Part shown: in pieces, positions 41,747-46,975 of the stretch | Layout of the letters: every line of letters begins with the position of its first letter | Position numbering within the stretch: the first letter of the stretch is position 1 | NCBI RefSeq assembly: GCF_011745625.1 | Contig: NW_027191466.1 | Location: forward strand, 372,001-436,000 | Reading direction: 5' to 3' | Source of the DNA: Cladosporium halotolerans | Lineage: Eukaryota | DNA: 64,000 nt | The notes under the pieces: model-generated | Database searches by the model: none | The model's input: only the letters and a program-made list of their open reading frames with translations | Told to the model about the DNA's origin: nothing | Program-made: the position numbers and the translations under genes

Positions 41747-44700
41747 ATGCCGAAGGCATACGACGTCAAGCGCAACTACTGTAAGTATCCATTCGCCGGC
41801 CTGGCCTGACCTTTTCCCGCAGTCTTTCCTCGTTGACCTTGAATCTTCGCAGATGCCGACCTCGAGCTGCCCACCAACGCCTCCTGCGAGGACGTCAAGA
41901 AGCAATACCGCAAGCTAGCCCTGCAGTACCATCCAGACCGCAACGCAGGCAAAGAGGAGGAGTACATCCCCAAGTTTCAGGCCATCCAGGCCGCGCACGA
42001 AATCCTAGGCGAGCCCTCCGAGAAGAGCAAGTACGACGCCGACCGCCGCAAGGCCGGCCTTTACCCTACAGGCGGCGTGGGGACGAGCACAGGTGCCGCT
42101 ACGGGAGCGAGAGGGAACCCGTACCAGGCGACTTCGGCCTATCCTCCGCCGCCTAGGAGGACGCAGCCTGGGACATGGCAGAGGACGAACACTGGCGCGG
42201 ACCGCTTCTCGAGCTTCCCTCGCGGCGCGCCGACGGCCAAGAAACCCGATCCTACCGCTGAGCGACAGAATGCATTCAGGGCGTGGCAGAATATGAACAA
42301 TGCTCAGGACCGCCAGCAGCAGCAGAGATATTCACAAGCGGGCGCGCAGCCGCAGCCTAAGACTGCTTCCCCGAGGAGACCTGCTCCGCCGCCGAGAGCT
42401 GCTGACCCGAAGTTTCCTTCTGACGAGAAGATCCGTGCTGGATTCTCATATCGCGAGGCGCCGCAGCCTACGGGCAGCGCAGACAATGCAGAGGAGCGGC
42501 AGTCGGCGTGGGCTGCGTTCCAGAAATCACATGCAAACGTCAACTCGCCGGGTGTCAAGCGCAGCAACACCAGCAAAACGCCCAAGAAGCAAGGCTTTGA
42601 CCCTAACGTGCTTGGTCCTGACGAGGGACCTGCGCCCGATAGCCAGTATGCGCATCGTCACAAGTCCGCTGACTTCGGTCGCCCAAGCGCCAATCCACCG
42701 CCGCCTCCACCGAGGCAGCCTCAGCCCGACTCGCCGATGTCAACTCCTTCACGTCCGCACGCAGACCCTCTCAGACCTTTCAAGTCTCGCACGAGCGAAG
42801 ACGATGCGCCATACTCGGAGGGTAACCGTGTAAGGACGCCTTACTCATCTTTCAGCGGTGAGCGTACAGACTTCGGCAGCGACATGAGACGCTCGAACAG
42901 TACCCGTGATACTTTTAGGATGAGCCACGGGTCGAACTCGTCAAGAGCGCGCAGTACAAGTCCACTTCGCCGCTCGTCAGCGGTACCAAGTGGCAACGGT
43001 CACAACCAAGCCAACGCACAGCCGCAAAAGCCTGCCTTCAGTGTTGGAGGCAGCTCGAGCACGAGCTCAGTCAGCTCAGAACCAGATTCCGCCGATACAC
43101 CGGATCAATACCAGAGCCCCTTCAGTCAACCACCTAAGTCTGCGGTACCGCCGATCAACCGCCCGAAGATCGTTCCCTCGCCGCCCAGCAGGCGATTCAA
43201 CGGCTCCACTAACCCAACATCGCCGCCTCCTGCGAACGGCAGCGGTCTAGCTGATGGTGGAATACAGCCAAAGAGCAACCCAAACATGTACGTCCAACCA
43301 GATTTCTACTCTAGTGAAACCCCTACCCACTCTTCTCCCGCGCGTGAATGGGTATCGCGCATGTTTGGTCTCGATTCAACTCGCAGGACCAAACAGCGTA
43401 GTCCGACGGTACCGCCTTGGGCAGTGCCAGATTCTATCATGGTCACACGAGCCGAAGGAAGCCCGCGGAAGCCGCGTCTGTTTCTCACACCAGATTCTCC
43501 GCCTGCTACTTCCGATAAACCAGACGATTCTTCGGTAGTACCAACGCATGATGATCTCATCGCATACAACTGGTTCACCGAGTCGTTAAATCGTCAGCGC
43601 GGCTCCATCCCCGGGAGTCTCGACATCGATGTATTCCTGAAGCTTGCATCAACTGCGCGCTCAGGTGGATCGTCGGGCCTGAGCTATCTTGACAAAATCA
43701 TTACCCGCGCAATCGCCCTATATCCGAGTGTTGGTTACAGGCCGATCGAAACAACGAATGCTGACAGCGACTCTCCCTCAAACAGATTCTCTTACCCAAC
43801 TTCTCCAGATTTCTTTGGCTCTTCGGCGAACTCCAAGAGCCGCAGCGAAGAGAACATCAACACCAGTTTCTCCGCTAATGGCTGGAGCGGAACGTTCTCT
43901 GGCTCGGCGGATTATTTTGCGCCGCCGCAGGGTCCTCAGAGGCGAGGCTCCCCGTCGGCGCGCGGAGCACAGAGGCCTGGTGTACGCACTGCGAACTCGA
44001 ACTATGGACAGCCCAGCAGCGCTACCCAGTCTCCGACTAACACGTCGATGCCGCCTCCACCGAGACCTTACACTGCTCAAACGGACGACACCGCCTCTGC
44101 ACCGCAGACCGCAGGTAGTGACGCTAAGTTTAGCAAGGAGCAATGGGAGCAGACTTTCAAAGACGCTTCATGGACGTACCCTCCGCCTCCATCTATGCCG
44201 CCACCCAGCAGTCCTGCTAAGGGCAGTACCAAGGGAAGGCAGCCCAGCAGGAAGAACAGCAGAGCTCAGTCGAAGCCTACGTCGTCTGGAAGCGGGAGTG
44301 GAACAGCGGCGAACCCGCATGTCATCGATGAGAAAGATGACGAGACCATTCATCCTCCGAGGACTGGCCACTCGGCTTCTGCAGAGCCAGCACAAGAGGC
44401 GGATGCCATGGACATTGACAACACACCTCCGGCTACAGAGCAGCAGCCCCGCGCGGAGCATCAAAAGGAGCCACGTCTTGTCTCAGTACCGCCGTCAGCC
44501 TGGCGCCAGTCTCAAGGCCCGCACGCATCAACCATCCACCACCGCGCCACCTCCAGCGGCTCCAGCAACGGCGGCCCACTCAAGACAAACCTGAACGACC
44601 TCGCCAACGTCGCCCCCTTCACGCAAACCACCGACGGCGCCGGCCTCTCCGACCTCAAATCTATGTCCGCAACCCTCCCCTTCCCCTCGCAAGCAGCCAA

Positions 44701-45115
44701 CACCCTGCCCACCAACCCACACAAACCGCAAACCCTCTCCCTCCCCGTCGTCCCCATCCCGCCCAAGTCCCCACCCCGCCTCAGCAAGCACACCTGGCAC
44801 CAGTACGCGCAGAACTTCGGCGTCTACCTGCTCGCCTTCAACTCCTTCAACAGCGCCATGCTGCAGCATTTCCAGGCGCGCGACCAGCAGGCCGCGCTGC
44901 GCATGCAGGCCGGCATGGCCTGGCTCGAGGCCGCGGGCGACGCGACGGTCGGCGGGGGGTTCGGGACGTTCGCGCGCGAGGTCAAGGAGGACGAGAGGGT
45001 GCGCGAGACGTGGAACATGGGCTGCGAGAGGCATGCGGATGCCGTCAAGGAGTTCGATGAGGTTAGGGAGAGGGTTAGGAGGTTGGCGGTCGCGGGCGCG
45101 ATTGGGGAGCAGTGA
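41747..45115 (+). CDS. Large J-domain (DnaJ/Hsp40 class C) protein; intron 41781..41852; candidate retained/spliced segment 43288..43785
   Basis: Spliced N-terminus [53 protein letters not shown]..YD is a J domain with HPD. It is followed by a long Pro/Ser-rich region and a helical C-terminal domain. Confidence 0.9.
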
Positions 45116-45843
45116 GCGGTGGGGTGAGTGTTTCTTTTCTCTCCCTTTGAAGGAGGGTGTTGCGAAGGAGGTTTTTTTGCGAGGGAGAGATTTTGTGAGA
45201 GACGGAGGATTGTTCTTTTTGATTTTCACGAGCGAGCGGTTTGAGGCGGTGTGCTTTTTTAGACGATACCCTCGGTTTTGGGTCGGGCATGAGCGAGCGA
45301 GGACGGATGGTGCATAGCGACGCATGAAGAAGCGCGGCATACTCATCGGTTTTGGTTTTGATGGGGATCAAGGAAGGGCAGAGAGGAGCTTCTGAGAGCG
45401 TGCCGCGGGCATAATACCTTTTACTCTTGCCCTGCTGTCGCGAGCCTGCTCCTGTCTACGATTGTTGCATAGTCAAGGGTAGCATAAGCATCAAAGTTTA
45501 CTGGAATCATTCTTTTTATCGTGCCTGGTACATTAGTCTGTGGAATATAGCAACCGATCAAACCTACCTAGGTACCTATGTTGAATATGTTCTTCCGGGT
45601 AAATGTTTAACGCGGCCGATGCCGTCGGCGTCCAATGGCCCGGGGTCTCCTACATCGGCACGATGATGCATGACCGACTTCCACCCTGAGCGCTGCCCCG
45701 CGCCAGCCCACTCCGACCCGCAATGCGCGATGGTGGGACCGCGTGTTTACTGCAACTGCCGAATGCTTCTCTGCCGTTGATGCTCCGCCTTTAACTGCTT
45801 CGCTGTTCCTCTCTCTTTCTTCTTGTCACTTGTTCTAGCTTGA

Positions 45844-46975
45844 ATGTTCAGCTTGAGACTCGCTTGCAGAAGCTCTGTCGCAGTTTCGTCTAGAGCGTTC
45901 AGAACAGCATCCTCTACACCGACCTCTACCGGATTCACAAAAAAAACCGCCATCAGGCCGAGCATCCCGCAACCCAGCACCACTTTCAGCGCCCCCATTT
46001 GCCGCTCCCTCAGCACCAACATGGCCCCTCTCACTGCCTGGTCCCGCCTGGTTCGCTACGAGTCCGCGAAGGATGGCAGCATCCGCTACGGCGACCCCAT
46101 CGTCAACGAAGACAGGCCAGACATCGACGCTCTGGCGCAGAAGGGCGGGCTGAAAGTCAAGGTCCTCGAGGGCCCGACGCCTATCACTGCTAAGCCGACG
46201 GGCGAGGAGGACGAGGTCAAGCGCTTGCTTGGGCCGCTGACGCCGAAGGATGTTCCGATCATTCGGTGCGTGGGGTTGAACTACAAGACGCACAGTGAGT
46301 TGCCCCCGCCTTGACATCGGGGAGTATCCGAAAGACACCAGATACTGAGCAGTCTCAACCGCAGTCCTCGAAACCGGCTTCGACCTCCCCGCGAACCCAA
46401 CCCTCTTCATCAAGCCCTCGCCTGCGGTCGGCGACACGCGCTCGCCCGTCCCGATCCCCAAGCTCGGCCAGCCCCAGTGCGACTACGAAGGCGAGCTGAC
46501 CATCGTCATCGGCAAGGACGCCAAGAACGTCTCCGAAGCCGACGCGCTCTCCTACGTCGCGGGCTACGTGTCCGGCAACGACGTGTCCTGCCGCGACTGG
46601 CAGATGGAGAAGGACAAGGCGGGCATGATGCCGCAGTGGAGCTTCAGCAAGAGCTTCGACGGGTACGCGCCGCTGGGCCCCTGCGTGGCGAGCGCGAGCC
46701 TGCTGGGCGACGCGAGCGGGCTGAAGCTCAGGACGTTCGTCAACGGCGAGAAGAGGCAGGAGAGCGACACGGCGGATCTGGTGTTTGGCGTCAAGAAGCT
46801 GGTGAGCTTTCTGAGCACGGGGCAGACGCTGCAGGCGGGGAGTTTGATCATGACGGGCACGCCGGGCGGTGTTGGGTTTGGAATGAAGCCACCGGTTTGG
46901 CTGAAGGATGGGGACGAGGTTGTGGTGGATATTGAGGGGATTGGGAAGGTGGTTAATGTTATGAAGTTTGAGTAG
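45844..46975 (+). CDS. Fumarylacetoacetate hydrolase (FAH/FAHD2) family protein; intron 46295..46364; alternative start 46021
   Basis: Motifs RCVGLNYKTH-ILE, PTLFIKP, CDYEGELTIVIGKD, GNDVSCRDWQ, SKSFDGYAPLGP and IMTGTPGGVG. Confidence 0.92.

Follow-up and report, generated by a model that had tools for sequence, protein, structure and literature searches.

A 498-nucleotide segment in a J-domain protein gene of Cladosporium halotolerans is probably a conserved exitron

Introduction

Can one piece of a gene be both an intron and a coding sequence? This question is raised by a J-domain protein gene with two introns on the + strand of a 64,000-nucleotide (nt) stretch of the Cladosporium halotolerans genome (contig NW_027191466.1, positions 372,001 to 436,000), hereafter the window, in which all positions are counted from the first letter. 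A single open frame of 1090 codons (41843–45115) spans a 498-nt segment at 43288–43785 which carries the signals of an intron, and which the first-pass annotation had described as an exitron-like intron encoding a domain-like, helical insert in an Hsp70 co-chaperone. The sequence agrees with the basic elements of that description, with the donor AT/GTACGT at 43288, the motif GCTGAC at 43760, and the acceptor AACAG/A ending at 43785 all present, the 498 nt comprising 166 codons in frame without a stop, the spliced reading being ..PN-I-FSYP.., and the insert peptides quoted there found in the translation. Splicing of the segment yields a product of 932 amino acids (aa) reading ..KSNPN-I-FSYPTSP.., with the splice junction turning a Met codon into Ile (AT/G..AG/A to ATA; junction peptide ..SNPNIFSYPTSPDFFGSSANSK), and retention yields a product of 1098 aa.

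We conclude that 43288–43785 is probably a conserved exitron, namely a true spliceosomal intron that is also protein-coding, within a large exon of the J-domain protein gene, and that the gene probably makes both a short and a long protein. What is new here is that an annotated intron is, by comparative sequence data, a conserved and selected coding segment with a predicted folded module.

Splicing of the segment

Contigs of four public runs from close relatives (X1, X2, X6, and X7), whose label as RNA is a guess, were aligned to the gene. The joint 43287/43786 (GT..AG, skipping 498 nt) is present in the contigs of X1, X2, and X7, that is in three of the four runs and in three studies. A 3480-nt contig of X7 (record 22) carries this joint together with that of intron 1, and because intron 1 is also removed, the contig derives from spliced mRNA and not from a genomic deletion. 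Run X6 shows no joints at all whilst covering the insert, and as such resembles DNA and adds nothing on splicing.

The contig depths are coarse, and pre-mRNA, mature mRNA, and DNA are not separable by them. In X1 the spliced junction has a depth of 10.1, with no retained-form contig and no retention of intron 1. In X2 the junction depth is 45.4 and that of the retained-form contig 6.39, with intron 1 retained at 12.4 vs 30.8 spliced. In X7 the junction depth is 60.6, with the segment retained only as a 141-nt piece at 13.8 and no retention of intron 1. The ratio of retained to junction depth, subject to the same coarseness, is ~14% in X2, 23% in X7 (partial piece), and 0 in X1. The spliced form, encoding the short protein of 932 aa, is dominant in the available RNA contigs. 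The sole insert-covering contig of X7 (160 nt) departs from the window in its first 19 letters, just upstream of 43537, which may reflect local strain divergence or another joint inside the segment.

Protein-level matches show the same splice. A protein search retrieved P0022, a 932-aa protein from a 3156-nt Logan contig with both joints (exon 1 to exon 2, and across the segment), which reads ..KSNPNIFSYPTSP.. and differs from the spliced product of the window at 12 of 932 residues; at 3156 nt the contig is too short for the gene with the 498 nt included, and so does not contain the segment. A member of the same cluster, P0028 (XP_069229472.1 / KAL1586367.1, hypothetical protein WHR41_05516 of Cladosporium halotolerans, 932 aa), is letter-for-letter identical to the window's product minus 43288–43785. 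The splice is therefore already in the public annotation, with RefSeq modelling the segment as an intron. That the segment is never spliced, one of the two outcomes named in the first-pass annotation as refuting its reading, is excluded by the exact joint in three of four runs, its linkage to intron 1 removal, P0022, and the RefSeq model.

The window alone is a poor guide to the significance of the segment. The first-pass annotation had put the chance of 166 stop-free codons at 3e-4, a figure that is invalid, as the segment lies inside one 1090-codon open frame and a stop-free stretch is therefore expected of an ordinary exon. Furthermore, when the codons of the open reading frame were shuffled 1000 times and scanned for a donor GTRNGT followed by CTRAY 8–48 nt ahead of YAG, at a total length divisible by three (3n), at least one 3n candidate intron was found in 691 of the 1000 shuffles. 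Depletion of cryptic donors in the open reading frame was not found, with GTRNGT occurring once in the real frame vs a shuffle mean of 1.93. The segment is not beyond chance from the window alone, and it is the comparative and RNA data that give it significance.

An equally good 3n candidate in 691 of 1000 shuffles, together with the guessed RNA nature of the runs, would suit an ordinary coding exon whose apparent junction arises from noisy splicing, faulty assembly, or a deletion in the genomes of some strains. However, the same joint recurs in three runs from three studies at a depth above that of any retained contig, one contig physically links it to intron 1 removal, a combination not accounted for by a genomic deletion, and its signals are conserved at synonymous sites (see below). 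We regard an ordinary exon as scarcely credible.

Conservation of the segment as protein

Among 27 homologues, 25 carry the segment as continuous protein, with 32–44% identity to the window over the segment and a short downstream flank; the two without a continuous segment are P0022, which is the spliced form, and the Cryoendolithus antarcticus model. The near-invariant residues of the insert are N-M-Y at its start, P..D...F..L.S.A in the middle, and a Pro near its end, with the window retaining all of them. Orthologous DNA was sought by scanning metagenome contigs with motifs outside the segment, which gave 34 loci, with L001–L008 and L010 being orthologues that cover the region. As L002 and L003 are identical over the region, the window and eight metagenome loci form a set of nine distinct sequences.

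The segment in these nine sequences measures 498, 480, 483, 483, 489, 489, 495, 513, and 498 nt, in every case 3n and stop-free, and all 13 gap blocks in the codon alignment of the segment are whole codons, in agreement with the observed lengths. Pairwise Nei-Gojobori estimates of the ratio of non-synonymous to synonymous substitution rates (dN/dS) are 0.36–0.52 for the segment in five of the closer unsaturated pairs, and 0.03–0.09 for the rest of the gene in the same pairs. The ratio of non-synonymous to synonymous proportions (pN/pS) is 0.37–0.50 in frame 0 vs 0.72–2.69 in the other two frames, and pooling of three independent pairs gives 91.7 changes at 350.5 synonymous sites and 134.3 at 1098.5 non-synonymous sites (Fisher p 2e-9). 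That the segment is always spliced, with decayed introns in its orthologues, is excluded by the 3n, stop-free state of all nine sequences and by this frame-specific purifying selection.

These data bear most directly on the view that the segment is an ordinary constitutively spliced intron, its open frame a relic or coincidence and its long protein never made in meaningful amounts. Such an intron is consistent with the dominance of the spliced form in all three runs with RNA-type contigs, with retention of the segment in X2 not exceeding that of intron 1, with the RefSeq model, with splice signals that fit the consensus, and with an insert whose GC content, overall and at third codon positions (GC3), is intron-like. 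A relic frame would not survive, however, because synonymous sites are saturated between most of the orthologues and yet nine of nine sequences remain 3n and stop-free, with indels of whole codons. Frame-specific purifying selection and the near-invariance of specific residues also stand against a relic, and intron 1 of the same genes shows no such conservation, measuring 56, 59, 61, 61, 62, and 62 nt in six loci, none 3n, with the 72 nt of the window as the 3n exception. A constitutive intron of this kind is, in our view, very unlikely.

Splice signals within conserved codons

The signals required for splicing are conserved together with the amino acids that they encode. The donor AT/GTACGT is present in eight of the nine orthologous sequences, with GTACGC in L010, a change of Val to Ala; GCTGAC or GCTAAC lies at the same distance from the acceptor in all nine; and the acceptor AG, also present in all nine, starts an Arg AGA codon, except in L010, where it starts Ser AGT. 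In codon terms, Met-Tyr-Val supplies the donor, Ala-Asp (with Ala-Asn and Thr-Asp as variants) the branch, and Asn/Asp-Arg the acceptor, AAC AG/A in the window. The corresponding protein motifs [NS]MY[VA] and [AT][DN]x6[RS]F occur in all 26 insert-bearing proteins, delimiting a would-be intron of 153–180 codons.

Codon choice at these positions is fixed to a degree seen at few other sites, with the same codon kept in all nine sequences at only 15 of 213 (7%) invariant degenerate columns. The donor Tyr is TAC in nine of nine, the sole fixed-codon column among five invariant Tyr columns, and the branch Ala is GCT in nine of nine, the sole fixed-codon column among 12 invariant Ala columns. The acceptor Arg is AGA in eight of eight sequences, with AGA making up 12–24% of Arg codons in these genes. 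Because the nine sequences are related, these counts are not independent trials, but synonymous sites are otherwise saturated between most of them. As the splice signals lie in codons of conserved residues, selection acts on one sequence at two levels, keeping both the signals and the translated product of the segment.

Splicing probably also extends beyond the close relatives of C. halotolerans. A junction-region search with the spliced protein gave 26 proteins, including P0043, which lies outside the cluster of P0022. This protein (954 aa, 3621-nt contig) has the full N-terminus and J domain and reads ..SSSNN-I-FSFP.. It matches the spliced product over its entire length at 44.8% identity, whereas its alignment with the insert-bearing P0021, P0035, and P0025 falls into two pieces around a gap of 140–165 residues. 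On the sequence evidence, P0043 comes from the spliced cDNA of a distant species or else from a genome that has lost the segment precisely, and in both cases a spliced form is implied in that lineage. In the NCBI model of Cryoendolithus antarcticus (997 aa), the same donor (..SN-I..) is joined to a different acceptor, which lies inside the segment. Gene models of the group (P0013, P0024, P0025, P0027, and P0028 in the annotation comparison) disagree, with the segment removed in C. halotolerans (932 aa) and kept in C. fusiforme (1093 aa), Rachicladosporium (1086 aa), and Vermiconidia (1119 aa). A conserved exitron explains this conflict among the Cladosporium halotolerans, C. fusiforme, Rachicladosporium, Vermiconidia, and Cryoendolithus models.

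Extent of retention and strength of constraint

Several observations weigh against the exitron reading. In the RNA contigs of X1, X2, and X7, whose RNA label is itself a guess, the retained form is a minor one at most, and since intron 1 is also retained in X2, the retained contig of that run may stem from pre-mRNA or DNA. Among the contigs and homologues examined, no contig of cDNA type combined loss of intron 1 with presence of the insert. With regard to constraint, non-synonymous evolution of the insert is 4–12 times that of the rest of the gene (dN/dS 0.22–0.59 vs 0.03–0.17 in the estimable pairs), and comparisons of the window with the other sequences give insert dN/dS values of 0.41–0.63, at the high end, such that constraint may be relaxed in this lineage. 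Additionally, GC3 of the segment is below that of the rest of the gene in eight of nine sequences; in the window it is 0.515, vs 0.654 and 0.731 in the flanking exons, both of which are further from it than the overall GC of intron 1 (0.542).

Some of these values would fit a transitional state, in which most relatives seldom or never splice the coding segment, whereas the C. halotolerans lineage has come to remove it efficiently as an intron, its coding constraint now being relaxed. The window's insert dN/dS compares with 0.22–0.52 among the other sequences (L010 aside), and its GC3 drop relative to the flanks is the largest (0.515 vs 0.690). Direct RNA evidence comes from the window's close relatives and one other lineage only, and the C. 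fusiforme, Rachicladosporium, and Vermiconidia annotations keep the segment as exon. Conservation of the donor, branch, AG, and spacing at synonymous sites in nine of nine sequences would, however, be unexpected if the signals were unused. The distant P0043 lacks the insert exactly at the N-I-F junction, the Cryoendolithus model has the same donor, and every near-invariant insert residue is kept in the window. We consider a transitional state of this kind unlikely.

The protein and the fold of the insert

The assignment of the gene product as an Hsp70 co-chaperone is supported by homology. The N-terminal region matches the J domain of Pfam PF00226 above the gathering score (62.4 bits vs a cut-off of 27.8, E 4.5e-17), and the HPD motif is present in the translation (..LQYHPDRNAG..). 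The HPD tripeptide, located in the loop between helices II and III, is a defining feature of J domains, and Hsp40 proteins are further characterised by stimulation of the Hsp70 ATPase. A profile search of the Protein Data Bank (PDB) gave matches to J domains only, and no Pfam, NCBIfam, or PDB sequence matches were found outside the J domain. The protein shares the N-terminal J domain and HPD motif with J-domain proteins in general (Hsp40/DnaJ; Pfam PF00226), but glycine-rich, zinc-finger, and DnaJ C-terminal domains are all absent from it, and the remaining chain is predicted as ~780 low-confidence or disordered residues and a C-terminal helical hairpin.

In the AlphaFold2 model of the whole protein (28 aligned sequences), the predicted local distance difference test (pLDDT) score is below 50 for 783 of 1086 residues, the exceptions to this low confidence being the J domain, one helix, three helices in the segment, and the C-terminal helical hairpin. 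Modelling of the insert within a 194-residue query with a 31-sequence alignment (A2) also gives three helices, over residues 86–150, with a block-mean pLDDT of 89–96 for residues 91–150 and 74 for residues 81–90; the same helices have a pLDDT of 72–88 in the whole-protein model. The first 85 residues of the insert are of low confidence apart from short conserved motifs, and the near-invariant P, D, F, L, S, and A (..P.SLD..VFL.LASTAR..) fall in the three-helix region. The earlier description of the insert as domain-like and helical is thus supported by a predicted three-helix module (AlphaFold2 pLDDT 89–96). Foldseek of the module against the PDB gave no match at E <= 0.001, the best hit of the wide VIA-align search (6dt7_B, Z 5.7, 57 residues, root-mean-square deviation 2.9) was in the generic helical range, and a search of the ESM Atlas with the insert gave no usable match.

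We infer that the retained RNA acts as a mature, translated mRNA and that the long protein is made, and the choice between the forms may be regulated ('switchable'). A fraction of transcripts would keep the segment, be exported, and yield a J-protein of 1098 aa, export being proposed because neither form has a premature stop. The long protein would gain a disordered linker of ~100 residues, with the motifs W..RMFG and P.WA.P, and a three-helix module of ~60 residues, and the insert would sit between the J domain and the C-terminal helical hairpin as an added interaction module, which may therefore alter the range of partners or clients of the co-chaperone. Provided that the long form is made, the locus offers a simple system for the re-targeting of a co-chaperone by a removable module, and for how a fungus with introns of ~70 nt handles an intron of 498 nt.

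Origin of the segment

Searching the insert alone against 1.84 billion representative proteins gave 11 matches at E <= 0.001, most of them at the equivalent position of long proteins, with the remainder looking like fragments; as judged by length and position only, these 11 matches indicate no other architecture or donor gene for the insert. Distant relatives (L013–L034, 28–38% identity) have ~55–65 coding residues between ..MY[AP]DSSDEE.. and ..NSFKSRSEE.., and so encode protein between the same flanking motifs without the splice signals. In place of the exitron, these loci show an acidic serine stretch that is conserved, ..MY[AP]DSSDEESE.., and after it PPPP.W and ..GN.PNSFKSRSEE.. (e.g. L020, ~2540–2730). 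An exitron in L013–L034 was considered and rejected, as the donor position varies (GGATAT, GTATCC, GTATGC, GTACCC, TTATCC) and tblastn of these loci to the insert is non-significant (best E 7.1).

Met-Tyr-Ala codons of the ancestral type read GTATGC in the four such sequences examined, and a Ser AGC codon occupies the acceptor position in 11 of 13 distinct distant sequences with the motif. The donor GTACGT and the acceptor AG would be readily acquired, because GTATGC needs few changes and Ser AGC already gives AG. Read most simply, these sequences suggest that in the Cladosporium-like clade the linker separating two ancestral motifs became longer and gained splice signals from near-matching codons. 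A mobile-element origin was rejected, as there are no inverted repeats and one weak two-copy direct repeat around the segment, as was an RNA gene within the segment, with no Rfam match at E <= 1.

RNA structure

In close pairs, synonymous divergence of the segment is lower by about a third than that of the remaining gene (e.g. 0.33 vs 0.51, 0.096 vs 0.157, and 0.60 vs 0.88), which together with the lower GC3 hints at RNA constraints such as splicing elements or structure. Folding of the whole segment gave a z-score of -1.30, with 11 of 100 shuffles as good. A local stem covering the donor (arms in Table 1) has 10 base pairs (bp) in the window and is part of the local minimum-energy fold in seven of nine orthologues, with 94.4% of cells paired, and its covariation is not above that of shuffles (88/500; nine sequences). 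This hairpin could modulate donor use, or merely follow from two conserved peptides.

It is conceivable, though quite unlikely, that the exitron is a built-in stress sensor, its splicing dependent on temperature, salt, or spliceosome capacity with the donor buried in the hairpin. Where splicing faltered under stress, the long J-protein would be made by default and its three-helix module would redirect Hsp70 to other partners. Were this so, the splice signals, hairpin arms, and peptide motifs would be one sequence read three ways.

Comparison with known systems

The segment agrees with the structural definition of an exitron as summarised in a review (PMC5602073). As with the exitrons described there, it is internal to a coding exon, has splice signals, is 3n, and leaves both forms in frame; the coding sequence continues in the same frame on both sides, with both flanks conserved as protein. 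It also resembles exitrons as that review presents them in comprising much disordered sequence with short motifs, and in a coding ancestry suggested by distant relatives. In plants and animals, exitrons (Marquez et al. 2015, as given in PMC5602073) have very weak splice sites and a predominant retained form. That profile, which is typical according to the review and not strictly defining, is not seen here, where in contrast the signals GTACGT, GCTGAC, and CAG fit the consensus, and it is the spliced form that prevails among the RNA contigs. Compared with the exitrons of PMC5602073, the insert here also has a confidently predicted folded module, and the host is a filamentous fungus with introns otherwise of ~70 nt. 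Among the literature matches listed for exitron with fungi or fungal, no exitron in a fungal gene appears in the titles or abstract openings.

The closest fungal precedent, as described in PMC7491326, is the intron of PTC7, which with NUP100/NUP116 exemplifies translated intron retention in budding yeasts and for which two proteins have experimental support. Like the segment, the PTC7 intron is reported there as fungal, 3n, stop-free, and conserved across species, with splice sites of perfect consensus in several species. The criterion used in that study is a 3n, stop-free intron with read cover inside of at least 10% of junction reads, and the segment is likewise 3n and stop-free. Whilst the spliced and unspliced PTC7 mRNAs encode two proteins (PMC7491326), the long protein here is only inferred. 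The PTC7 intron, on that account, adds a transmembrane helix near the N-terminus, whereas the present insert is predicted to add 166 residues, including a soluble three-helix module, at a central position in a disordered J-protein. The PTC7 gene is not homologous to the J-protein gene.

Alternative splicing of FES1 in yeast, described in PMC4831876 as yielding functionally different isoforms of an Hsp70 cofactor gene, sets an earlier example of control by splicing in the network of Hsp70 co-factors. Its isoforms are distinguished by the C-terminus and by localisation (as stated in PMC7491326), unlike the in-frame internal insert here, and the Fes1 protein acts as a nucleotide exchange factor and does not belong to the J-proteins.

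Functional alternative splicing yielding two proteins is considered rare in fungi, according to PMC3597508. The present case has unusually clear comparative support, with all six bases of the donor, and likewise the branch motif and the acceptor, lying in codons of conserved amino acids, and with splice signals and reading frame both kept across lineages whose synonymous sites are saturated in most comparisons.

Gene layout and neighbouring sequence

The features of the gene are collected in Table 1.

Table 1. Features of the J-domain protein gene and of the 498-nt segment (window positions)
Feature	Position	Strand	Remarks
Exon 1	41747-41780	+	ATG, 11 codons and 1 base, MPKAYDVKRNY-Y; joint 41780/41853 in contigs of X1, X2, X7
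Intron 1	41781-41852	+	72 nt, GTAAGT..CAG; ordinary short intron, internal control; skip of 72, GT..AG, in contigs
Exon 2a	41853-43287	+	J domain (coding ~41861-42037), then long, mostly disordered region; from Pfam and AlphaFold2 pLDDT
Possible hairpin, 5' arm	43280-43289	+	CCAAACAUGU; last eight exon bases and donor GU; lead only
Probable exitron	43288-43785	+	498 nt, phase 2, 166 codons, stop-free; spliced out in most RNA contigs
Donor GTACGT	43288-43293	+	Spelled by conserved residues M-Y-V
Possible hairpin, 3' arm	43359-43368	+	GCAUGUUUGG; in codons of conserved peptide RMFG, ~70 nt downstream
Predicted three-helix module	43538-43732	+	Helices ~43547-43600, 43625-43660, 43682-43720; from AlphaFold2
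Branch-site motif GCTGAC	43760-43765	+	Branch A 43764, 21 nt before G of AG; spelled by conserved A-D
Acceptor CAG	43783-43785	+	AG is first two bases of Arg codon AGA
Exon 2b	43786-45115	+	Disordered region with conserved short motifs, C-terminal helical hairpin (coding ~44786-45091), stop TGA 45113-45115

The next gene on the + strand (45844–46975) consists of two frames joined by a 69-nt intron at 46296–46364 (GTGAGT..CAG), and from its translation presumably encodes a protein of the fumarylacetoacetate-hydrolase family. This intron and the 72-nt intron 1 are the two other introns measured, the exitron being ~7 times their length.

Minor differences between the runs and the window were also observed. 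All four runs are without 3 nt at 44574 relative to the window, an in-frame difference of one codon, and three runs are without 17 nt at 45158, in the 3' untranslated region (UTR). A contig of X6 joins 45115 to 45256 (skipping 140, GC..CT), also in the 3' UTR, which is probably a strain difference or an assembly effect.

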